A stretch of DNA of 33,717 nucleotides. Origin: a virus. Taxonomy: Duplodnaviria > Caudoviricetes. Position numbers and translations under genes: made by a program. Below, piece after piece: positions 1 to 22,226 of the stretch; the stretch's first letter is position 1; every line of letters begins with the position of its first letter. Under the pieces are notes generated by a model. The model did not search any database and was not told the DNA's origin. It saw nothing but the letters and a program-made list of their open reading frames with translations. Location of the stretch: positions 1 through 33,717 of IMG/VR virus record IMGVR_UViG_3300031890_000033; one strand, given 5' to 3'.

Positions 1-308
1 TCCCGCCATGATTGCGTCACCAAACGATTAAGATTCTCCAAGCCAGTCTGGTTCATGGCTAGAATAGTCTGGTGACACTTGCGCATTTCTTCTGCCTTAG
101 CAATGTAACCTTCGACACCATATATTGGCTTGATGCCGAATTGTTTACACGCTTTCTCAAGCTGAACGTGTGATGACGTGTTCCCATGTTCAGTAAGAGC
201 CATGGCTGTCATGCCTAGTTCAGCGCAACGCTTTACGTGTTCACGCGGTAATCCGAATCCGTCGCCATAGCTAAATGTGCTATGATGGTGAAGACTCACG
301 TACTGCAT
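1..308 (-). CDS. dnaE: DNA polymerase III alpha subunit, N-terminal PHP domain (partial, runs off window)
   Basis: Manual translation from ATG 308 gives MQYVSLHHHSTFSYGDG...GMTAMALTEHGN...GIKPIYGVEGY...HQTILAMNQTGLENLNRLV, matching PHP motifs (LHxHS.FS..DG, TEHG, IKPI.G.E). Not in the ORF track because it is truncated. Confidence 0.92.
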   Translation of the reverse strand, partial: MQYVSLHHHSTFSYGDGFGLPREHVKRCAELGMTAMALTEHGNTSSHVQLEKACKQFGIKPIYGVEGYIAKAEEMRKCHQTILAMNQTGLENLNRLVTQSWR

Positions 309-765
309 GGTCCCCTTCTGCCTTCATCTCAGCCAGAATATTGAGACAGGTACCAATTAAATCCATGATTATTTCATCTGTTTGTTCGAACTTGAGTTTT
401 TCACCATCCCACAGGCATCTTTTGAGCTTGATGATTTTCCTCCACATATCAACAAATGGAGCTTTCGGCCCGAGACCACCACTTAATCCGCCGTAATCCT
501 TGGTCTTCTTGAGATACAATTCCAGAGCTTTCGGCAAAATCTCGTAGACAATTCTGATTGAATCATCGTGTGGAAGATTTTCAAATCTGTATTCTATTAG
601 ATCAGGGCCTAGGCGTTCAACCCAAATTACTGGTTCACCGCATATAGATGGTTGCCTAGCTTGTTCACGCATAACTTCAGCTTGTGATGAACTTGGTCCC
701 CAATAAGATTCTTTTTCCAAGGATGTTAGGTCATCCACGCTTTTCTCTCCAATTTCCAAGATCAA
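280..765 (-). CDS. Nucleotide-modification-associated domain 1 (DUF1599/MazG-like all-alpha NTP pyrophosphatase fold)
   Basis: C-terminal pattern KKTKDYG...G....F.D..RK..KLK......E...E...DLIG. The true start may be GTG 738. Confidence 0.6.
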   Translation of the reverse strand: MILEIGEKSVDDLTSLEKESYWGPSSSQAEVMREQARQPSICGEPVIWVERLGPDLIEYRFENLPHDDSIRIVYEILPKALELYLKKTKDYGGLSGGLGPKAPFVDMWRKIIKLKRCLWDGEKLKFEQTDEIIMDLIGTCLNILAEMKAEGDHAVRESSPS

Positions 766-1354
766 TTAATATTTCTTCCAAAGCAGCATCTAAATCCATT
801 GCTCTTGGGAACCAATCTAGATGCTTGTTATACGGCTGATCGCGCAGTATGGTAGGTAATTTCAATGAAGCAGCCTGTTGCACCATCTCGGGTAAATCAT
901 CCAAAACAGCGGCTACACGTTCACGACCGACTTGTTTAACTAGGTCGCGATATTTATGCTCGCCCCAAATCAAGTGATCATATTGTATCTTATTAGCACG
1001 TAGCCAGTGGCGGGTGTCTGGACTTTGAGTATCCAGCTTTAAATATGGTCTTGTTGTTGCTAACCATAATTCAGCTCCACATTTACGAATTGTATTAGTA
1101 AGCTCAGCTGCCCCTTCATAAGCTGGCATGCTTCGTTCTAGTCCACCTTGTCGATAGGCCAATTTACATTGTCGATAGGTTGATTTGCTTGTTTGCATAA
1201 ATTTATGAAGGGGCAGCCCAGGGTTAATATCTTTGGGATCGGGCATTTGGCGTCCATACCATCCAGCTGCAAAACACAAGAAGTGCGAATGATAATCTCC
1301 TAATGTGCCATCTATATCAACAGCTACAACTGGTCCATCGAAATTGTGCTTCAT
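731..1354 (-). CDS. HAD-superfamily 5'(3')-deoxyribonucleotidase-like phosphatase
   Basis: Motif I VAVDIDGT, motif II TTR, conserved K, motif IV LDD, C-terminal QPYN. Start moved to ATG 1354 (ATGA overlap with the upstream stop). Confidence 0.8.
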   Translation of the reverse strand: MKHNFDGPVVAVDIDGTLGDYHSHFLCFAAGWYGRQMPDPKDINPGLPLHKFMQTSKSTYRQCKLAYRQGGLERSMPAYEGAAELTNTIRKCGAELWLATTRPYLKLDTQSPDTRHWLRANKIQYDHLIWGEHKYRDLVKQVGRERVAAVLDDLPEMVQQAASLKLPTILRDQPYNKHLDWFPRAMDLDAALEEILIDLGNWREKRG

Positions 1355-1638
1355 GCTCGTCCGCCGATGTCCCATCCACGCTCATTTATTCGATGTCCAT
1401 TACCCGTCTTACCGTTTTTAATATTCCATCGACAAACAGCCTCACCAGCTTCGATCATTGAGATCGCATGGAATATATCTACGCATTTATGGATCTTGAC
1501 ACATTTATCATCATGGAATACAGCGAGTTCATTGTTAAGGTCGATATCATAATACTGCAATCCTTCTGCTGATATATTGCCTTTTTCATCTTCCTCCCAC
1601 TGAATACTTACTACTCCAGCATCACTTAATCTTGTCAT
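1351..1638 (-). CDS. hypothetical protein
   Basis: 95 aa ORF overlapping both neighbours in the operon. Confidence 0.6.
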   Translation of the reverse strand: MTRLSDAGVVSIQWEEDEKGNISAEGLQYYDIDLNNELAVFHDDKCVKIHKCVDIFHAISMIEAGEAVCRWNIKNGKTGNGHRINERGWDIGGRA

Positions 1639-2401
1639 TGGCTAACACCTTCATCGCTTGATAAAATGCATCACTGGTTAAAATACCTTTTTCCCATGCT
1701 CCATAACGCCCGAGGTGCACAAAGTCAGGTGCGCCATTAGTTTCACATCGTAATGGCTTCTCAACTATTACGGCACCTATCCACGGTGGTTTCTCCCATC
1801 TTTCAAAATATGGCCATTCCAATGTGGATCGGTTAAATATTTTCGCAGACCGATACCATGTACATAAAGTGGTTCCATCGCATACAATTGTAAAGTCGGC
1901 TTGTTTCGCTAACCATCCTGGGTCCACATCGCCTAGTGCCCATATCTTCTTACTTTCGAAAATATCACCAGGTTGAGCCCATAGTTTACGAGGTACAGTT
2001 GATATTACTAAATCAGCATTCCAAGTATAATATGTGTTGCTATTGTTAAGCTCATGCTCAACTATCCATGGCTCAAACTCTTTCCATAGCCAGTCATATG
2101 CCCGTCTTAAGTCCCAGGCATAGTGTTGTTCAGTAAGGTCTTCAGGACTTACAGTACCATCCCAAGATTCGCCGTACACCTTATGACGATATTCTTCTGG
2201 CGTGCCTCGTAATTGATATTCTACTAGGTGTGGGCCGTCCGTATCTATTTTTGGAATTGGTTTATGTAAATACTGGGCGCCATGTAATTTGCTTTTCGCT
2301 TTACGACTATAAATGCGAAAGTCCCAGCCACTTATATTTGCCGCATGAGCGACCATCAATCCGGCGGGACCACAACCCAGAATGGCGACGTGTTTAGTCA
2401 T
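1622..2401 (-). CDS. FAD/NAD(P)-binding oxidoreductase (UDP-galactopyranose-mutase-like architecture)
   Basis: N-terminal Rossmann motif VAILGCGPAGL, then HGAQYLH, and C-terminal LGRYGAW. Confidence 0.75.
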   Translation of the reverse strand: MTKHVAILGCGPAGLMVAHAANISGWDFRIYSRKAKSKLHGAQYLHKPIPKIDTDGPHLVEYQLRGTPEEYRHKVYGESWDGTVSPEDLTEQHYAWDLRRAYDWLWKEFEPWIVEHELNNSNTYYTWNADLVISTVPRKLWAQPGDIFESKKIWALGDVDPGWLAKQADFTIVCDGTTLCTWYRSAKIFNRSTLEWPYFERWEKPPWIGAVIVEKPLRCETNGAPDFVHLGRYGAWEKGILTSDAFYQAMKVLANDKIK

Positions 2402-3542: not shown

Positions 3543-4412
3543 CTAATCCTCCTCGCCATCCGCGCCGATGCTTACGCTAAGCAATTCGACATTGTCACTC
3601 TTATTCAGTTTTTGCCTAGGTTGTGGATTTTCAGGAACCACTCTAGGTTCTGGCGCCGGTTTCGGACCAGACTCAATCAATTCGCGAACTTGCTTCAAAG
3701 ACAAGTTCACAGTTCTTGGCTCAAGACATAGAGTCCTGTCTTTCGCCATAACTGTCTTACTATTCTTCCATTGAATTACTCGAATTTCTTCCCATCTGTC
3801 TGTGCCATCTTCATTGACGCCGATCTTACGTCTGGCAATTTTCATTTGACCGAAGCTAGTCATCCAGCTAGCAACTTGCTTGGCGTATTGAGTTCCTTTA
3901 CCTTGCATCATTGGCAATACAACCTTATTGCCGTCTTCATCCTCTTCATCTTGTTGAAGTGCCGTGAAAAGAACATTGACCGGAAGATTCGTGAATGCTT
4001 TCACCATTCTGCGAACTTTCTCAAAGTAAGGAATCCAATCCTGAAGTTGCGGTACGTCTGGGTCTCTGGAAGGGTTCATCCTCACGCCTTCTTCAAGAAT
4101 GTAACGCATGCACATTTGCTGCATTTCCGTTAATGAGTCAAGTACAACCCAGTTGAACGGAATTGGGTCTTGATCTCGCAACCACCCATAGGCAGTAACG
4201 ATATCATGCCAACCATGTATTTGCCACTTCTTTGCAGTTGAACCCAAACGCTTGGCGGATATGGTGCCGTTATCTTCAGGTGCAATAAATAAAACATCAT
4301 CGTCTGAACCGCCGAAAACAGTCTTGCCAACGCCGCTATCAGCGTAAACAAGTAAATTCACGTATTCGTCTTCATCCTGAAGGTCGACAATGTTAGACGG
4401 TAAGTCTACCAC
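3543..4412 (-). CDS. AAA ATPase (Sak4/AAA_24-like recombinase)
   Basis: Walker A YADSGVGKT, Walker B VVLDSLTE, and AKDR motif near the C-terminus. Confidence 0.85.
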   Translation of the reverse strand: MVDLPSNIVDLQDEDEYVNLLVYADSGVGKTVFGGSDDDVLFIAPEDNGTISAKRLGSTAKKWQIHGWHDIVTAYGWLRDQDPIPFNWVVLDSLTEMQQMCMRYILEEGVRMNPSRDPDVPQLQDWIPYFEKVRRMVKAFTNLPVNVLFTALQQDEEDEDGNKVVLPMMQGKGTQYAKQVASWMTSFGQMKIARRKIGVNEDGTDRWEEIRVIQWKNSKTVMAKDRTLCLEPRTVNLSLKQVRELIESGPKPAPEPRVVPENPQPRQKLNKSDNVELLSVSIGADGEED

Positions 4413-4597
4413 AATAATCTCTCTTTCTCATCTGGCTTTTCAGGCATTCTAATCACATATGCCTCTATTTCATCTGTCATTGCAACTAAGTTATCAGCGT
4501 CACCTTTCGATATTCTACCAAGAGCGGCCACACGTAAAACTCTACGTCTGAACGTCTTGAGTTCTTCAAGCCCCAATTCCTTGACTCTCGCGACCAT
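4406..4597 (-). CDS. hypothetical protein
   Basis: 63 aa, translationally coupled to neighbours. Confidence 0.65.
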   Translation of the reverse strand: MVARVKELGLEELKTFRRRVLRVAALGRISKGDADNLVAMTDEIEAYVIRMPEKPDEKERLLW

Positions 4598-4840
4598 TTA
4601 GTTCACTCTCCGCTCCTCACCTATTTCAAACTTGGCAACCAAGTCATCCATAGCCATAAAGAACGCCATGCCGTTAGCTTTGAGCATTCTCATAAACTTT
4701 TTATCCCAACAATCTTCACAGATAAGGAATTTGCCATACTCGTCAAAGTCAAGAGCATGCCAGATAGTTCCTTGATCACGTAGATTATTTTGCCCACAAT
4801 GGCAGCATGGATCTGGATCAATATTCATATATGTCTCCAT
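4598..4840 (-). CDS. small zinc-finger-like protein
   Basis: Two CxxC pairs (CCHC, CEDC). Confidence 0.6.
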   Translation of the reverse strand: METYMNIDPDPCCHCGQNNLRDQGTIWHALDFDEYGKFLICEDCWDKKFMRMLKANGMAFFMAMDDLVAKFEIGEERRVN

Positions 4841-5235
4841 GTTTTATAATTTACAATTCTGCATATAGTCATTTGATTTACGTGAAAAATCTTCGCCAAG
4901 TCATATTGTGAATATTGCCCTGTAGCATACATTTTTCTTATTTCATTTACTTCTGCCCACGTTAATTTTGTCGAGGGATTACGTTCACCGCTAAAATCAT
5001 ATTTATAATGACAATTTGTACATCTAGGTGTATAGTTGTAAATATCTTCATCATCAGTATTGTGAATCCACGTCCAATGGTATGCCTCAGATCCACAATC
5101 TACACAATTATACTCAGACGCTTTTCCTCGTATAATCTCAATCTTACCATGTAATTGTCTGCGTGCAGTAGTATTGCCTGGTTTAAGCATCATGCAATTT
5201 CTTACTGCTAATCGCGCCTTCACGGTGATCAGCAT
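4825..5235 (-). CDS. HNH-like endonuclease with C-terminal HTH
   Basis: CVDC...PRCTNCH followed by KLTW.EV.EIR...LAKIF.V....I..I....TW.H. The real start is probably near 5193. Confidence 0.7.
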   Translation of the reverse strand: MLITVKARLAVRNCMMLKPGNTTARRQLHGKIEIIRGKASEYNCVDCGSEAYHWTWIHNTDDEDIYNYTPRCTNCHYKYDFSGERNPSTKLTWAEVNEIRKMYATGQYSQYDLAKIFHVNQMTICRIVNYKTWRHI

Positions 5236-6232
5236 ACGGATCTATTGATTGCATTGTAGTGGATATAAAATATTCTGTGTCACCGCCGGATTCGTCAAGT
5301 TCGCATAGATCAAAAAATTTGCAGAAGTAACAGTCACGTTGAGGAGTTTTCAACAACGGCATGCGTCCGGTTCGCACGTCGTCCATAACACGGGCCTCTT
5401 CAGAGATACGGACAACTTGCCGTTGACGTTCTTTACTTGTGCGCGGAACAAAATAACGTAGGAAGTTTGGTGAACCTTGTTTCTTACTGACACTACCATC
5501 TTTGTTAAGTCTTTGACCATCTTCGTCAGTCGGCCTATCATCAATCCTGCCACGGCGAACAAAGTTATACTCCATTCCGACAATGCGTTCAGTTGGCTCA
5601 ATTAAGCCCTGATGTCTTAACGCTGTTGTACCTACGGCGATGTATGTACTAGCTTGTTCATCTAATGTAAGGTGATACGTGATTATATCTTTCGCAGTTT
5701 TATGATCAACCATCTTTACTTGATTATCATTAAGGTCACGAACGCAAAGATCAAAAGTCCCAACGACCCTAACAATAGGCCGATACCCACGCTTACCCTT
5801 CTCCGAGACCATTGGTTTGTACCGGACATCGGGGATAATAACATCAAACTGCCGCTCAGCATCCAATACAAGCCAATGAGGATCGCCGCGATACAATTCG
5901 ACATACGCTTCGGCCAAGTCCAATCCAAGGTCATGGAAATCTTCCCACTTGGCTACAGTCTCGTCGTTGGTGTAATCAGTGGTCTTCACAGCTGCAACTA
6001 CATCACTAGATAATTTGTCCCACGTATCCGCAGGATGTGGGCCACGTTCTAAGCCAGGTATGTAATACTCAGCTAACGCTATATGAAAAAGAGACCCAAA
6101 ATCAGCAGCTTCTTTTCCAAGCTCGACTTTGGGTCTAATTCTGCGAACGTACTCCATATACCAGGCCCATGCGCAACGTTTAAATGCTGCCCGTTCACTT
6201 TGGCGGAGAAGTGGAAGTTCTTCAACGTTCAT
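5183..6232 (-). CDS. RecB-like/Cas4-family PD-(D/E)XK exonuclease
   Basis: SER..FKRC, FGSLFH, E..F, GTFDL, VDHKT, Q...Y and C-terminal CYFC.F..LC. Confidence 0.85.
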   Translation of the reverse strand: MNVEELPLLRQSERAAFKRCAWAWYMEYVRRIRPKVELGKEAADFGSLFHIALAEYYIPGLERGPHPADTWDKLSSDVVAAVKTTDYTNDETVAKWEDFHDLGLDLAEAYVELYRGDPHWLVLDAERQFDVIIPDVRYKPMVSEKGKRGYRPIVRVVGTFDLCVRDLNDNQVKMVDHKTAKDIITYHLTLDEQASTYIAVGTTALRHQGLIEPTERIVGMEYNFVRRGRIDDRPTDEDGQRLNKDGSVSKKQGSPNFLRYFVPRTSKERQRQVVRISEEARVMDDVRTGRMPLLKTPQRDCYFCKFFDLCELDESGGDTEYFISTTMQSIDPYADHREGAISSKKLHDA

Positions 6233-7109
6233 GAGTCATTCCTAAATAATGACTTAATTCTCCACCATGGAGCATGGACCATTTCTTCCAGCCAGGTAGG
6301 TATGTATCATATGCCTTTTGCCAGCTAACTCTGATTGAATTTTGTTTATCGAAGTCAGCTTTGTCTGGATTGTTAACAATATTTGGATACTTAGCGTACA
6401 GCTGTTCGTGCCACAATTTCTTTTTTGCCTTGAGATTACCTTCGCCACCTGCATAATCAAGCATACCGCCAGGTTGATAGCGAGTGCCTACTGAATTTGA
6501 TCGTGTTCCCAAGTGAATCATCCATGGATAGCCAGCTTGTAGCCCACGTAAGAATAGGTCATTGTCTTCAGCATATTCTAAGTGCTTATCGTAATTACCA
6601 ATTTCAAGCACGTTATCGACATTTAATGCTACAAGCCTAAAAGTCCCGGTAGGCAATAAAATAAGATCATCACGGCCTCTTATTAATCTCCCAAGACAAA
6701 GATCATGATAGCCATATCTAGCTGTGATACCTAAAACTTTATGGTGTGTAGCACAAGCTGCAAAATTACTCATGCTATTGTATTTAACATTTGGCTTTAT
6801 GTCGTCATCAGCAAGCACTATAGATTTCATGCCCCAACTGCCGGCTAAGTTGATGCAATGCATTCTACTATGTCCAATGCCACCATTCCTAATTGGCAAA
6901 GGGTGAATGCTTATTGTTGGATTCTGATTTTGAGCGCCTGGTCTTGATCTGAACATATATCTGAGATATGTGTCTTGTTCATCTGGCTCAACAATGAAAT
7001 GAACATGAAAGTTTAGGCTTCGCCAAGATTCAACAAGCTTGGCGGCTTCTTCCCAGCGCCCACGTGATGGAATGAATACGTGGTTACCCATTATCGTGAA
7101 CCGGGTCAT
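6222..7109 (-). CDS. GT-A fold glycosyltransferase (GREB1/TET-associated glycosyltransferase-like)
   Basis: VFIPSRGR, IVEPDE...Y, GIG.SR, LADDD, EDNDL.LR and PGG motifs. Confidence 0.72.
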   Translation of the reverse strand: MTRFTIMGNHVFIPSRGRWEEAAKLVESWRSLNFHVHFIVEPDEQDTYLRYMFRSRPGAQNQNPTISIHPLPIRNGGIGHSRMHCINLAGSWGMKSIVLADDDIKPNVKYNSMSNFAACATHHKVLGITARYGYHDLCLGRLIRGRDDLILLPTGTFRLVALNVDNVLEIGNYDKHLEYAEDNDLFLRGLQAGYPWMIHLGTRSNSVGTRYQPGGMLDYAGGEGNLKAKKKLWHEQLYAKYPNIVNNPDKADFDKQNSIRVSWQKAYDTYLPGWKKWSMLHGGELSHYLGMTHER

Positions 7110-7278
7110 CTTGGCTCAAGCCACAGACGACGCACTCCTCGCCGTCACCGATCTCGCCACCTTCTTCACATTCACAATTAGATTCATCTTCACCACATTC
7201 AAGACAAATCTGTTCAGGCTCGAAATCATGATCGTATTGATCGTCGTCGTCATTACCCGGTTCAAGGTTTTCGGGCAT
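7084..7278 (-). CDS. small acidic Cys-rich protein
   Basis: 64 aa, D/E-rich with no K/R, CLECG...CEC...CVVCG, RBS GAGAGGA. Confidence 0.6.
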   Translation of the reverse strand: MPENLEPGNDDDDQYDHDFEPEQICLECGEDESNCECEEGGEIGDGEECVVCGLSQDDPVHDNG

Positions 7279-7295
7279 TTTTTTTTATTCCTCTC

Positions 7296-7460
7296 ATGGT
7301 TTAATTTTACTGGGTGAACTGGTGTTCACGGGAATGCGGAGAGGAACCCCTTCGACTACACACTCCCGCGAACGCCAGAACACCCAGTGCGGGAAAACCG
7401 TGGCAGGAAAACCGCACTGGGGCTGGGGCAGACTTGGGATGCCCATCTGCCATGGGCGCT
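7296..7460 (-). ncRNA. candidate structured intergenic RNA (RNA-1)
   Basis: About 25-bp imperfect stem 7309-7333/7364-7388, alternative 10-bp stem 7383-7392/7412-7421 and hairpin 7441-7457. The loop carries GGGGUUCCUCUCC. Confidence 0.55.
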
Positions 7461-7904
7461 TTAGAAGCTAGCCTCACTCACGCCAGCTGCAACAGGCTCA
7501 CCTTCATCCTTGGTGCGCAAGCGCCGACGTGTCTTGGCCGGCTCACCGTCGGCTGTTGCTGAATCGGAGTCATCGCCATCAGCACCTTCTTCAGCTGCCT
7601 TGGCTGCTTCCTTGTCGGCCTTCTCCTGTTCTTTCTTGGCCTTCTCAGCGTCCTTCTCAGCCTTTTTCTGCTCACGATCTAGCTTCCGCTTCTCAGCATC
7701 GGCATCACGCTTTTCCTTGGCTATACGCCGTTCCTCAACCAGCTCCTGTGCGTGGCCCTGTTGCCATTCACGGTGATGGATGAAGGTAGACGCGACCTGC
7801 GCCTCACTGACGAAGTCTTCACCTTCGTTTTCATTGATGTAAGCGGTGAAACTCTTCATCGCTGGACTGGGGTTATCGACACCCCAACGACGGCCTTCTG
7901 GCAT
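7461..7904 (-). CDS. hypothetical protein with HxEWQ motif and charged coiled coil
   Basis: 147 aa with its own promoter and strong RBS (AAGGAG); long K/E/A-rich helix. Confidence 0.8.
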   Translation of the reverse strand: MPEGRRWGVDNPSPAMKSFTAYINENEGEDFVSEAQVASTFIHHREWQQGHAQELVEERRIAKEKRDADAEKRKLDREQKKAEKDAEKAKKEQEKADKEAAKAAEEGADGDDSDSATADGEPAKTRRRLRTKDEGEPVAAGVSEASF

Positions 7905-7951
7905 CTTACTTGCTCCTTTATCTATGACTGGTCTTTTCTCGACCTAACTCA

Positions 7952-7980
7952 ATTGTATCGAATTTTCTCGCGAAAGTAAA
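7952..7980 (-). promoter_or_regulatory. sigmaA-type promoter TTTACT-N17-TACAAT
   Basis: Intergenic, 17-bp spacer, AT-rich upstream, same -35 as the promoters at 16140 and 19818. Confidence 0.7.
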
Positions 7981-8019
7981 GAGAAAAACCCTAAAAATTC
8001 AGTTTAATTTTATGCCGTT

Positions 8020-8283
8020 TCATCCTCCTGTCGTCTTTCGCGGGTTAATCCGCATACGTCTAACAATGGCGTTTGGACCGCCATCCACACGCAAGCTACG
8101 ACGACCCTGGCGGGCTAATCGGAATTTGAGCAGCCTTTCGTGTTCTTCAATGGTCTCCATATTGACAATTCGCTCCATATACTTACGAATCACTTCGTGA
8201 TCAGGCTTGCGATTGATGACTAAGTATGCACTCACGAAGCCAGCTGCGTAGACTATTATGCCTTCCAGAATTTCAATTATCAT
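8020..8283 (-). CDS. small membrane protein
   Basis: N-terminal hydrophobic helix and ATGA overlap with the helicase stop. Confidence 0.65.
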   Translation of the reverse strand: MIIEILEGIIVYAAGFVSAYLVINRKPDHEVIRKYMERIVNMETIEEHERLLKFRLARQGRRSLRVDGGPNAIVRRMRINPRKTTGG

Positions 8284-10184
8284 CCAGTAACCAACTTCTT
8301 GGCCACGTCTAGTCCTCTCGCTCCATCCATAATGGATTTGATATTGAATTCAGCTTCAGCATTAGCTTGCGCGATATGCTCTTCAATTGTGTTCCTAGAG
8401 AACACTTTCCAAATAGTCACTTGGTGAATTTTACTAAGTCGGTGGAGCCTATCCTCAACTTGCTCCTGGTCTGAAGTATTCCAGGTCTCATCAAGAATGA
8501 CCATTTCATCGGCTGCATCCAAAGTCAAACTCACCCCGCCAGCGGTTGTCGTTAATAGCAAGACGCGAGTAGGACTGGTTGGATTATTTTGCCAATCGTC
8601 TTTGATTTCCTCTCGTTTCTTGTCTGGCGTATAACCAGTGAACTTATGGCTCAGGATTCCCTCTTTGGCGAGTCCATACGCGAAAGCATCAATGAGCTTT
8701 GAGAACTGACTGGCAACCACAATCTTAGGCACGTCGGCTGGAGCATGACGATAATCTGGCGCCATATCTTTGTCGATACCTCGCTCATTAAGAAATTCGA
8801 TGAGCCATTCATACTTATTACTTGGCAAGATTGGTATGAATACACCATCATCGTTGAGCTTTCCATAACTACCGGCAAATTGCTTAAGTCTTGTGAGTTC
8901 CGCCAAGATGCCGGTGGTCTGTAATATGCCACCTTCAATTTCGGTCTGTGCCTTACGTTCCATCTCTTCATATGCCCTCGCTTGCTCGTCTTCCATTTCA
9001 AGCCAAATGATATTATAGAGCTTTGGCGGGAGATCAGCAGCGACTTCTGCTTTGGTTCGTCGAATCATAACGCTTGATGCCTCTTTATACATTGCATCTT
9101 TGTCTTTAATGCGACCGATTACCATGCCATAACCATTCTGATATGTATCAAAATGCTCATTAATCCATCGCCAATAACTCCTGAATAGATCAGGCTTAAG
9201 CCAGTTGAGCTGGCCCCACAGATATTCTTCTTTGCCCCTAAACGGAGTTCCTGATAATGCAAGTCGCAATCCTTGCTCTTTTACCGTAAGCGCGCCTAAT
9301 CCTTGCTTCTGAGCAGACCATTTCTTTCGATTGCCTGACCCGCCGGCAATTGTCTGGTGAGATTCATCAATGATAATTGCTGACCATTCATAGTCGAACA
9401 ATTCCTGAACGGCCTCACCGACGATCTTGAACTGCTTTTGGCCGTCCTTTTTGACATAATTGCCATATTCATCTATCTGAGCTTTGATTCTGACATAATT
9501 CGGACTTGTGATAACCCAAATACGCTTTATGTCATCGCGCTTTTCCATAATTTCAATGGCACGATTAACCACATAACCACGCTCATCAGGGCTTAAATGT
9601 GCACCGATAGTGATAACTTTCTCACCAGGCGCCCATTTCCTTAGCTCTTGTGGCCAAGTTAGCTTTGCGGCGGATTTGGGGGCAATGACGAGGATGGGGC
9701 CAGTAAGGCCCGATTCAATAATTGCTGCAATTGACTGAATGGTTTTTCCAAGTCCTGGCTGATCTGCGATAAGGCAGCTGCGGTTTCTGGATGCAAAGGC
9801 TGCTCCAACAGATTGGAAAGGTCTTGCACTAATTGCGCTCCAGATTTGAGGATATTTCTCGCGGATTCGCGGTAGGTCGATGAGTCCCATGTGCTGGACA
9901 TCTGGAATGGTCTCCTGTCTTGCTTTTTCCTGCATTGCCCATTCATTGAGCGATGGCGAAATCTTGATATTGGCGTCAAATCTATTTGCTACTTCGCGTG
10001 CTTTTACACAAGTATCCCAGTGGGCGGGAAACACCCAGAATTTGTGTTCACCGTTCCAAATTGCTGGCCCAGGCAATCTTGCCTTGAGCTCACGATTTAA
10101 GTCTGGGTCATAACCGTCAAGTTTCACCCAAATCTTGAGTGCTTGATACTCATCGGTTAAGCCCATTAGCCACTGACGGCTCAT
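8280..10184 (-). CDS. SNF2-family (SF2) DNA helicase
   Basis: ADQPGLGKT, IIDESH, LSGTP, MIRRTK, GGVSLTL, QVEDRLHR motifs. Confidence 0.93.
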   Translation of the reverse strand: MSRQWLMGLTDEYQALKIWVKLDGYDPDLNRELKARLPGPAIWNGEHKFWVFPAHWDTCVKAREVANRFDANIKISPSLNEWAMQEKARQETIPDVQHMGLIDLPRIREKYPQIWSAISARPFQSVGAAFASRNRSCLIADQPGLGKTIQSIAAIIESGLTGPILVIAPKSAAKLTWPQELRKWAPGEKVITIGAHLSPDERGYVVNRAIEIMEKRDDIKRIWVITSPNYVRIKAQIDEYGNYVKKDGQKQFKIVGEAVQELFDYEWSAIIIDESHQTIAGGSGNRKKWSAQKQGLGALTVKEQGLRLALSGTPFRGKEEYLWGQLNWLKPDLFRSYWRWINEHFDTYQNGYGMVIGRIKDKDAMYKEASSVMIRRTKAEVAADLPPKLYNIIWLEMEDEQARAYEEMERKAQTEIEGGILQTTGILAELTRLKQFAGSYGKLNDDGVFIPILPSNKYEWLIEFLNERGIDKDMAPDYRHAPADVPKIVVASQFSKLIDAFAYGLAKEGILSHKFTGYTPDKKREEIKDDWQNNPTSPTRVLLLTTTAGGVSLTLDAADEMVILDETWNTSDQEQVEDRLHRLSKIHQVTIWKVFSRNTIEEHIAQANAEAEFNIKSIMDGARGLDVAKKLVTG

Positions 10185-20432: not shown

Positions 20433-20461
20433 ATTATACCTTATATACATCGAAAAGTCTA
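20433..20461 (-). promoter_or_regulatory. promoter TAGACT-N17-TATAAT (leaderless transcript)
   Basis: Consensus -10, 17-bp spacer, ATG 6 nt downstream. Confidence 0.65.
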
Positions 20462-20467
20462 ATTGAA

Positions 20468-20710
20468 GTTATCGAATAACCCATCTACCTCGAAAATAAC
20501 GAATAACCGAGTTATCTCGATTTCTTGCAAGTGAAAATTGCGATAAACGATAACTTATTTCTTATTCTTTATATTTATTTTTTACATATTATAGCTAGGA
20601 AAGGTTATCGGTTATGTAAGCCTTTGGACAATTGGAAAAGAGCTGGTAGATGTCGGTTTTCGAGAAATAACTTTGTTCGAGTTTGCTCGGTTACCTAAGT
20701 TATCGGACCC
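20468..20710. repeat. AT-rich segment with repeated GTTATC / (GA)ATAAC motifs in both orientations
   Basis: Examples: GTTATCGAATAAC, AATAACGAATAACCGAGTTATC, CGATAAACGATAAC, GGTTATCGGTTAT. A T-rich tract lies at about 20555-20590. Confidence 0.55.
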
Positions 20711-20781: not shown

Positions 20782-21003
20782 GATCAGAACATGCGTGTGG
20801 CTTGTTTAGCACAGATCAGAACATCGTACCGGCTTGATATCCAAGATCGGAACATGCGTAATTGTTTGGGCACATCAGAACTTGCGGTTAGCGCCGAATC
20901 AGAAGATCGTGCCGGCCACGAGCAGAACTTAGTTCAGCTAACGGATCAGAACTTAGTTCAGCTAACGGATCAGAACTTAGTTCAGCTAACGATCAGAACT
21001 TAG
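20782..21003 (+). repeat. iteron-like array: nine GATCAGAAC-like motifs, the last part a 24-bp tandem repeat (CAGAACTTAGTTCAGCTAACGGAT, about 3.4 copies)
   Basis: Motif starts at 20782, 20814, 20845, 20873, 20897, 20920, 20944, 20968 and 20991. Tandem units span 20923-21003. Confidence 0.85.
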
Positions 21004-21019
21004 GCAAGGCTCTCCTTGC

Positions 21020-21085
21020 TCGAACGAATGTTCGATCGAACGCACGTTCGAGGTCGAAAGTTTGTTCGATCGAATGGACGTTCGA
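21020..21085. promoter_or_regulatory. four tandem actinobacterial LexA (SOS) boxes TCGAAC-N4-GTTCGA
   Basis: 21020-35 TCGAACgaatGTTCGA and 21036-51 TCGAACgcacGTTCGA are perfect; 21054-69 TCGAAAgtttGTTCGA and 21070-85 TCGAATggacGTTCGA have one mismatch each. Confidence 0.8.
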
Positions 21086-21129
21086 GAAATTCTCTTAGAA
21101 AACTCTTAGGAAAAAATCGCGAGAAAACG

Positions 21130-21158
21130 TCGACTTTCTCTTCGAACGCGCGTATATT
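21130..21158 (+). promoter_or_regulatory. promoter TCGACT-N17-TATATT
   Basis: 17-bp spacer starting TTC like the leftward early promoters; an A-tract lies upstream. Confidence 0.65.
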
Positions 21159-21204
21159 CGTAATCGAGGGCGAAAAAGATTCGCTCCGAACGGAAGGAAA
21201 TACC

Positions 21205-21558
21205 GTGGCAGTTAAAAGTATCGTCTCGGAGTTCGTTAACGAGACCGACGAGAGTTCCGCTCGTTTCTACCTCGCGAAGCTCGCCGAGAGCGGAGTTAAC
21301 CCCGACGAACTTACCTTCGTCGAACTCGTCGCCGTAACCCGTAAGTGGCACGGCGAGTGGCAGCGTAGCGACGCTCGTCGCGACGAGCGCGACGCGATCG
21401 CCGAAGCGCGCGAAGCGGAGCGTAAAGCCGAACGGCTCGCGAATCTCGCGAAAAAGCGCGACTCTCTCGTCGCGGCCGCGAAGCGCGACGCCGAACGGGC
21501 CGCGAAGCGCGAGGCGGCTCTCGCCGAACTCGCCGAAGCGGGTCTACTCGATTCGTAA
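21205..21558 (+). CDS. 117-aa HxEWQ/coiled-coil protein encoded by a TG/CA-depleted gene
   Basis: GTG start with GGAAGGA RBS, own promoter and terminator; similar to the 7461-7904 product. Confidence 0.8.
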   Translation: MAVKSIVSEFVNETDESSARFYLAKLAESGVNPDELTFVELVAVTRKWHGEWQRSDARRDERDAIAEAREAERKAERLANLAKKRDSLVAAAKRDAERAAKREAALAELAEAGLLDS

Positions 21559-21567
21559 TCGCGAACG

Positions 21568-21600
21568 GCTCGCGGGTCGCGCTTAGCGCGGCTCGCGAGC
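21568..21600 (+). other. 15-bp GC-rich RNA hairpin in the 3' UTR
   Basis: GCTCGCGGGTCGCGC-TTA-GCGCGGCTCGCGAGC, with two G.U pairs on the plus strand. Confidence 0.65.
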
Positions 21601-21612
21601 TCTCCCGAAAAG

Positions 21613-21650
21613 ATTCCACCGGTCCCTCCATAGGCCGGTGGAATTTTTTT
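21613..21650 (+). terminator. intrinsic terminator
   Basis: ATTCCACCGG...CCGGTGGAAT stem followed by a T-run. Confidence 0.8.
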
Positions 21651-21767
21651 GGGGGGAGGGGTTCATTGTCGCGGTGCACGCCGGACCGATCGTGTGTAGG
21701 TTCAAGGCAACACTTAGCCTATCTAAGTAATGTAGCGGAATATAACTGAAAGGCGTATAATCTAAGT

Positions 21768-22226
21768 ATGATCCCTGTCACCGGCTACTCCGGTTGGTCG
21801 GTTGATGAGTATGGTAATGCTTATGAGAATGGTGTATTAGTACCGGGCCACGCTCAGGATAGCGGTCATATACTTCTCGGTCACTTCAAGTACCGGCGCG
21901 CTATCCTTGTGTGCACAGCATTCCATGGACCGCCTCCAGAGCATGATTCAATGGCGTGTCACAAAGATGATGTAGGTGGCAACGATATCCCAAGTAACCT
22001 GTACTGGGGCAATGCTTCAAGCAACGCCAGGGATGCATGGCGTAATGGCAGGCGCGCAGCTTGCGGATCAAAAGCATCAGGTTCAAAACTCATCGAAGAA
22101 CAAGTCATAGAAATCAGACACATATATCCATCAATGTCACGTAAACAATTAGCCAAGATGTATGGCGTTAGCGGTATAACAATTCATCACATCATTAACC
22201 GGGTAACATGGACACACGTGCCATGA
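21768..22226 (+). CDS. HNH homing endonuclease (I-HmuI/NUMOD4-like) with C-terminal HTH, probably leaderless
   Basis: LVCTAFHGPPP....ACHKDD...ND..SNLYWG..SSN..D. TATAAT at 21756-61 is 6 nt before the ATG. Confidence 0.85.
   Translation: MIPVTGYSGWSVDEYGNAYENGVLVPGHAQDSGHILLGHFKYRRAILVCTAFHGPPPEHDSMACHKDDVGGNDIPSNLYWGNASSNARDAWRNGRRAACGSKASGSKLIEEQVIEIRHIYPSMSRKQLAKMYGVSGITIHHIINRVTWTHVP

Follow-up and report, generated by a model that had tools for sequence, protein, structure and literature searches.

The closest described parallel to the locus analyzed here is the pre-early DNA of phage T5. The T5 terminal repeat (about 10 kb) carries the pre-early (first-step-transfer) region, and this DNA avoids restriction sites of 4–6 bp, which is the nearest published concept to the tract described below. 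The two resemble each other in that a terminal repeat, the probable position of the tract in this study, contains small genes served by host-type promoters, and in that a motif is avoided in DNA that enters, or here would enter, first. They differ in the size of the motif, which is a dinucleotide in the present case, and in gene content, polarity, and the exemption of one sequence context. The gene of the tract matched no A1, A2, or dmp-type family of T5 pre-early genes in PHROG, Pfam, and cultured-phage searches, and we know of no palindromic exemption or strand polarity in T5 pre-early DNA.

Recognition of the TG step on both strands by a phage system is described for the thymine hypermodification of SH-Ab 15599 and phiW-14, and TG is a documented context of this modification in the portions of the report considered here (PMC13458397). 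That pathway uses a Pplase2-type transferase, whereas none was present among the ORFs scanned in this study, and the same portions of the report describe neither a TG-free region nor an exemption of TGNCA. In T2 and T6, the TAGT enzyme (PF20691) adds a second glucose to glucosyl-hmC, and solitary phage TAGTs have been proposed as novel DNA transferases, according to the sections of PMC13216743 and, for the glucosyl transfer, PMC13390438 used here. The phage studied here encodes a member of this family, but the ORFs scanned (complete relatives in part) gave no match to a dCMP hydroxymethylase or an α- or β-GT. No TAGT match was obtained among cultured phages.

Cultured relatives share much of the remaining gene content. 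Onyinye, Aikoy, Leopard, and the cluster D phages (Hawkeye, PBI1) have terminases with 52–58% identity to that of the phage studied here (58% for the Mycobacterium phages Aikoy, Onyinye, and Leopard) and the same replication and oxidoreductase/phosphatase genes, but their layout is co-directional and the parts examined contain neither the tract nor its gene. The Wifcevirus ECML-117 has a CA/TG-poor tract at 6750–8400, with 4–8 of each dinucleotide per 250 bp, that is also depleted on both strands over small genes and lies beside a TG/CA strand switch; unlike the tract described here, it is milder, keeps ATG starts, follows no TGNCA rule, and belongs to an unrelated phage and host. A literature search, thin on subscription journals, found no published description of the pattern analyzed here.

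Composition and gene of the purged tract

The window, by which we mean the whole stretch of 33,717 nucleotides that was analyzed (IMG/VR record IMGVR_UViG_3300031890_000033), is from an uncultured actinobacterial phage in which replication genes run to the left and structural genes to the right. At the junction lies a 540-bp tract, designated the island, that contains 3 TG, 3 CA, and 100 CG by direct count. Base shuffling of the tract (10,000 shuffles) gave a mean of 65 TG plus CA and a minimum of 41, and all other 540-bp windows of the contig contain 78 on average and at least 56. Three codon-level nulls were applied to the 117-codon gene (genome codon usage, GC3-matched usage, and a shuffle of its own codons), and in each of them the observed TG or CA count was reached in 0 of 2000 draws. 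The non-coding DNA is purged as well, with no TG/CA in the 128 bp 5′ of the gene (15.6 expected) or in the 58 bp 3′ of it (6.4 expected). The odds ratio of CG in the tract is 2.11 and that of TA is 0.85, and the island is richer in GC and CG than the rest of the genome. Because TA is not enriched, the purge does not stem from CpA deamination, the decay of methylated CA; an RNA-level cause was rejected since untranscribed DNA is purged too, and a foreign origin since the gene is native to the lineage.

The original prediction, made from the sequence alone, is borne out in its description of the tract. Its count of 3 TG and 3 CA against about 60–70 expected was reproduced exactly, both dinucleotides are common elsewhere in the window, CG is strongly enriched, the whole unit including promoter and 3′ part is purged, and the depletion holds under codon-level control. 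Its proposal that selection acts on the DNA is upheld by the purging of untranscribed DNA, by the palindromic nature of the exemption, and by a strand bias that tracks genome direction.

As had also been noted, all six residual dinucleotides lie inside the hexamer GTGGCA, which includes TGNCA. In the islands of the window and three relatives (L009, L015, and L017), all 14 residual TG and all but one of the 15 residual CA fall within TGNCA, part of these sites being orthologous and hence not independent, as compared with a background share of 4–6%. The set covers TGGCA, TGCCA, and TGACA together with five start codons, every one of which is GTG-NCA. The purge rule is strict enough to dictate amino acids in the island protein. 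In 20 of 34 homologs, each His or Gln follows Trp or Cys and each Trp or Cys precedes His or Gln, and in 11 of these 20 Cys replaces Trp ahead of a conserved His or Gln, an exchange that keeps the TGNCA palindrome; the other 14 homologs break this protein-level rule, L008 being the one among them for which the DNA was seen. The rule is not absolute because L001, a near-identical copy, has a new CA outside TGNCA; further exceptions are four TG in or beside the LexA-type boxes and single edge sites in L015 and L009. Genome-wide, TGNCA is under-represented (0.63–0.79) in four genomes with double-strand islands and is also low (0.62–0.68) in Onyinye, Wentworth, and G005, which have no island. TGCA is strongly avoided throughout the genomes of G002 and G003 (0.24 and 0.48 of expected), with CATG and TGTG/CACA the next lowest 4-mers. 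The low 4-mer values of G002 and G003 are not counted as support, since low TGTG is common to all genomes tested and an avoidance of palindromes would account for TGCA and CATG just as well.

The −35 element of the island is TCGACT, as predicted, and forms part of a promoter-like site (Table 1) whose pattern, T(C/A)GACT-17-TA..T, recurs by consensus match 5′ of the island genes in L009, L017, and L022. The island unit therefore probably has its own conserved host-type promoter, as judged from the consensus. The leftward early promoter-like site of the window (TAGACT-17-TATAAT, 20461–20433, minus strand) likewise has a −35 element without TG/CA.

Translation of the 117-codon ORF confirmed the absence of internal Met or Cys. 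The predicted protein is all-helical (pLDDT 91.6), and a database search gave 20 homologous entries, of which 18 are from other phages. There was no Pfam or PHROG match at E ≤ 0.001 and no Foldseek match at the same threshold (best PDB row AcrIE3, E 0.8); the VIA-align rows are coiled coils with Z ≤ 6.7, and searches of cultured phages and species genomes gave no match and the ESM Atlas no usable one. Fold and profile searches revealed no resemblance to known transcription factors, and at the threshold used the fold search yielded no known anti-defense or polymerase-binding phage fold. The protein contains 24 Asp plus Glu and 21 Lys plus Arg, and an acidic DNA mimic of the Ocr type was rejected for want of a strong net negative charge. 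A profile of the N-domain matched the post-helicase genes of G002, G003, L002, P3.1, G005, and Onyinye with E values from 4e-7 to 1e-2 (8,308 ORFs) and, weakly, the window's own post-helicase copy (E 4.2). On the strength of these profile matches, the island gene is a relocated copy of the post-helicase gene of the lineage, without its acidic tail. In the codon-null test, no TG/CA depletion was seen in the paralogous post-helicase genes of the window, L010, and L002. As a guess, the island product is a putative partner-binding early protein that protects or processes incoming DNA.

Table 1. Positions of features in the window (unless another genome is named) and properties of related islands
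Feature	Position	Strand	Basis or observation
FAD-type oxidoreductase, NT5C-like phosphatase, and phrog_10271 gene; candidate precursor pathway	280..2401	-	Pfam/PHROG
Sak4-like annealing protein and PD-(D/E)XK exonuclease; candidate end-processing pair	3543..6232	-	Pfam/PHROG
TAGT-family glycosyltransferase, candidate marking enzyme	6222..7109	-	PF20691, E 2.9e-10
Post-helicase gene, distantly paralogous to island gene; no purge (32 TG, 32 CA)	7461..7904	-	Profile search
Zone without plus-strand TG but with CA; harbors three 24-bp tandem repeats (20920-20991)	20911..21016	+	Sequence
Probable direct terminal repeat, edges +/- ~100 bp or more	20950..21700	.	Contig depth
Four tandem 16-bp LexA-type boxes, two exact, two with one mismatch	21020..21085	.	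Match to TCGAAC-N4-GTTCGA
Tract without TG/CA on either strand save in TGNCA	21077..21616	.	Counts, codon nulls, shuffles
Promoter-like site TCGACT-17-TATATT, without TG/CA	21130..21158	+	Consensus match
Ribosome-binding site GGAAGGA	21192..21198	+	Sequence
117-aa island gene: small helical N-domain with WHGEWQ motif and 55-residue helix	21205..21558	+	Model, homologs
Tolerated TGNCA, start GTG and Ala GCA (TG 21206, CA 21209)	21206..21210	.	Sequence
Tolerated TGNCA, Trp-His (TG 21346, CA 21349)	21346..21350	.	Sequence
Tolerated TGNCA, Trp-Gln (TG 21358, CA 21361)	21358..21362	.	Sequence
Pair of adjoining long inverted repeats with stems of 16 and 23 bp; putative terminator and/or end-processing structure	21567..21655	+	Folding
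GCGGTG after G-run, just right of purged tract; candidate end/packaging signal	21671..21676	+	Position conserved
Conserved GGCGTATAAT element ahead of structural-gene arm, putatively late-promoter-like	21752..21761	+	Sequence
TG/CA switch points	Window ~20,700; L015 ~4500; L008 ~600; G001 ~31,900; ECML-117 ~4900	+	Dinucleotide counts
LexA-type arrays elsewhere	Skysand MH669013 60483-60550; SuperSulley MG757166 59916-59967; L008 780-854		
TylF-like methyltransferases	L037 14360-15091; L041 11934-12638; L045 3844-4521		
Island of L009, 965 bp, inverted, two genes (second unrelated)			4 TG, 5 CA
Island of L015, 728 bp			4 TG, 4 CA
Island of L017, 633 bp			3 TG, 3 CA
Island of L020, 318 bp, truncated			0 TG, 0 CA

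Related islands, strand polarity, and probable genome ends

At least four related phages have an island purged on both strands at the corresponding genome position, and the purge there spans non-coding DNA as well as genes that are divergent or unrelated; the related islands are in uncultured soil actinobacterial phages. L018 and L021 start within an island, L021 apparently being the same phage as L009. The island proteins of the window and L009 are 58% identical, and the purge is kept in both. The second island gene of L009 (2752–2958) encodes 68 amino acids, starts with GTG GCA, and has no Pfam match. The island gene faces the early arm in L009 and L022 and the structural arm in the window, L008, L015, L017, and L020. 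A scan for the right-edge motif returned 10 loci, 4 already known and 6 unrelated and without an island. Among 57 further terminase-flank loci, many of them too short to include the junction, the sole two-strand island was that of L091, a repeat of L015, and a narrower family alignment yielded no further loci.

No island is present in G002 or G003, both of which have all four candidate modification genes, or in the entire genomes of Onyinye and Wentworth, each of which has three of the four. Therefore the modification genes are not sufficient for an island. Wentworth has a divergent layout and yet lacks one; its gene 63 has a 218-bp gap. Nor was an island found in the sequence examined from G005 (54 kb), Hawkeye (44 of 67 kb), P3.1 (45 of 67 kb), Skysand (28 of 67 kb), and SuperSulley (14 of 64 kb). 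The early-promoter regions of co-directional relatives show mild depletion at most, and the early regions of island-less relatives with the same genes are TG/CA-rich. Fixed genome ends may be a second condition for an island; the cultured relatives presumably lack them, being circularly permuted.

Two relatives are purged on one strand. In G001, a complete 74-kb relative, 11 TG and 127 CA are found over 1,635 bp at the junction, and the genes are on the minus strand; in L008, there are 6 TG and 26 CA, and the gene is on the plus strand. In both phages, it is the strand reading in the direction of the structural genes that is poor in TG, and the one-strand purge is set by genome direction, not by gene direction. 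In G001 the TG-free strand serves as the template; in L008 it is the coding strand, and the promoter region of L008 is not purged. None of the 11 TG of G001 is in TGNCA, and its genome lacks TAGT and NT5C; this differing rule (one strand, no TGNCA exemption) points to phage enzymes, in a sample of one, as G001 is the sole complete island-bearing relative without the glycosyltransferase and NT5C. A zone in which only TG is missing lies ahead of the double zone in the window, in L015 (4502–4834), and in L009; the CA-free zone ends 100–300 bp short of the TG-free zone, and the purge runs over hundreds of untranscribed bases. The plus strand also switches abruptly from TG-rich/CA-poor to CA-rich/TG-poor, with mirror symmetry about a point near the left edge of the probable repeat (Table 1), and CA is low at 20451–20700 of the window (0.34 of expected).

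The depth of contigs, rather than of reads, was compared in 8 of 24 runs. Over the tract it was about 1.7–2.8 times that of the flanks in four runs: 31.9 against 14.4 and 16.8 in X2, 12.9–13.2 against 4.9 and 6.9 in X9, 14.4 against 9.4, 6.3, and 7.5 in X7, and 24.5 against 10.5 and 7.0 in X5. In X8 and X1, single contigs cross the island and a flank, and their mean depths are compatible with doubling, implying 535–1,020 doubled bases; the island was not covered in X3 and X6. X1 and X2 may be the source runs of the window itself. In X9, a part with 47% GC has a depth of 13.2 as compared with 6.9 for a flank with 49% GC, making GC bias unlikely, although a higher depth could also come from the summing of strains or from DNA without marks being amplified more readily. 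The approximately twofold depth suggests that the purged tract is probably the direct terminal repeat of the phage.

The 3′ hairpin of the original prediction proved to be two long hairpins (z −9.5), and long hairpins are also present in L015 and L017. GCGGTG is found at the right edge in 7 of the 8 loci compared and is absent in L020. An HNH endonuclease gene (window 21768–22226) lies between two late-promoter-like elements and is absent in L008, L015, and L017. The actinobacterial LexA consensus is TCGAAC-N4-GTTCGA (PMC3381160), and the four LexA-type boxes, which end 45 bp 5′ of the −35 element, are its sole matches in the window with 0–1 mismatch; a control pattern gave none. Arrays of three to four tandem boxes also occur at the early-gene divergence point in unrelated actinophages, and Skysand has two more single boxes, at 45579 and 57343. 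The presence of arrays in the island-less Gordonia phages Skysand and SuperSulley indicates that the array is separate from the island.

Explanations for the purge

The reading that we favor, tentatively and with slightly less than even confidence, is that the phage has an enzyme that marks TG/CA yet spares TGNCA, and that the terminal repeat must stay unmarked. The enzyme would put a bulky mark on TG/CA everywhere except in TGNCA, and selection would have stripped TG/CA from the repeat to keep the genome tip free of marks. A clean tip would most likely be needed for resection and annealing of the repeats, in which an exonuclease would remove the two 5′-ended strands before Sak4-type annealing. 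Unavoidable TG/CA (start, Trp, His, and Gln) would be placed in TGNCA, which the enzyme would leave unmarked. In addition, host RNA polymerase may gain an unmarked template, and the DNA may evade modification-dependent nucleases in the interval before the small protein appears. The geometry of the tract fits end-processing best: the plus strand is TG-free from about the point at which depth doubles, the minus strand is TG-free inward from the right edge, and these are the two 5′-ended strands that an exonuclease would remove. Against the favored reading, an island is lacking in G002 and G003 despite their complete gene set, and in Wentworth despite three of the four genes; TGNCA is also low in island-less genomes; the ORFs scanned yielded no hydroxymethylase, kinase, or aGPT-Pplase; and the reading offers no reason for a modifier to skip both halves of TGNCA. 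The original prediction had tied the purge to modification genes and had proposed a comparison of homologs with and without them. The tie stands insofar as the rule shifts in G001, which lacks TAGT and NT5C (n = 1), and fails insofar as G002, G003, Onyinye, and Wentworth carry the genes without an island.

It is possible, although we put it clearly below an even chance, that a self/non-self system operates here at dinucleotide resolution, in which an enzyme starts at the genome end, takes one strand at a time, and marks or cuts TG/CA while failing to recognize TGNCA. If true, such a system rewrites a terminal repeat and couples Trp/Cys to His/Gln in the protein of that repeat, the sequence of which reads out enzyme specificity without chemistry. 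The strictness of the rule, its palindromic loophole, and its strand polarity together predict what an uncharacterised enzyme would recognize, and genome tips alone could reveal the modification or restriction contexts of uncultured phages. The processing and expression of heavily modified phage DNA on entry becomes a testable question, and cultured relatives propagated on laboratory Mycobacterium smegmatis carry part of the same enzyme cluster.

T7-like phages duplicate their terminal repeats during packaging, and a related, unlikely explanation is that the repeat cannot be protected. TG/CA marks would then shield the genome from a nuclease, of phage or host, that cuts unmarked TG/CA, and the tip, re-synthesized at packaging and marked on one strand only, would have to lack the target; TGNCA would survive by virtue of the old-strand mark, which would shield the partner in the way that hemimethylation does in restriction systems. 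This gives a direct reason for the palindromic exemption and for one-strand and two-strand purges, and the edges of the purge coincide with the probable repeat. However, the G001 zone retains 127 CA with none of its TG in TGNCA, the CA-free zone is shorter than the TG-free zone, and no candidate TG/CA nuclease was found.

Ranked after this, and also unlikely, is a reader supplied by the host, a defense or DNA-end enzyme that would recognize TG/CA in first-entering DNA while a methyltransferase masks TGNCA. A palindromic methyltransferase would cover both halves of TGNCA, and the milder tract in the unrelated coliphage ECML-117 suggests that the dinucleotide recurs across hosts, but ECML-117 has no TGNCA exemption, no DNA methyltransferase was present in the ORFs scanned save TylF-like ones in G001–G003, and Skysand and SuperSulley, which lack the gene cluster where checked, have no island in the parts examined.

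The original prediction had proposed that the purge lets host RNA polymerase read a gene whose product unlocks the marked genome. As the sole cause of the purge this is improbable. The promoter, gene, and terminator are all purged, and the probable conserved host-type promoter of the unit, with a −35 element free of TG/CA, is the part of the proposal that stood. A block on the template strand, however, cannot cover both one-strand cases, because the TG-free strand is the template in G001 but the coding strand in L008, where the promoter region is unpurged. Moreover, the purge includes hundreds of untranscribed bases, the early regions of relatives that have the same genes and no island abound in TG/CA, and the protein is unlike any known transcription factor.

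It is very improbable that no enzyme reads the tract and that foreign origin, mutation bias, or DNA mechanics (TG/CA being flexible steps) set its composition, since, despite the GC- and CG-richness of the island, the gene is native to the lineage, one rule is common to unrelated genes and spacers, the TA level excludes CpA deamination, and Trp/Cys choices add TG so as to pair with CA, compensatory TGNCA pairs that already largely refute neutral causes.

Candidate modification and replication genes

The oxidoreductase of the window has no solved relative. The search for a dUMP hydroxymethylase, a 5-HMU kinase, or an aGPT-Pplase covered 60 ORFs of the window, itself part of a genome, and 60 selected ORFs of relatives. 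A TylF-like methyltransferase is found beside TAGT, or in its place, in G001–G003, and none was matched in the window. An overlapping contig adds Pol III α and a ThyX-like gene, the latter being the thymidylate enzyme. The usual ThyX motif is RHR. The ThyX-like enzyme (L059 15909–16934) has RQR or RSR at the motif site in all six relatives compared, and an enzyme of this kind might make a modified nucleotide.
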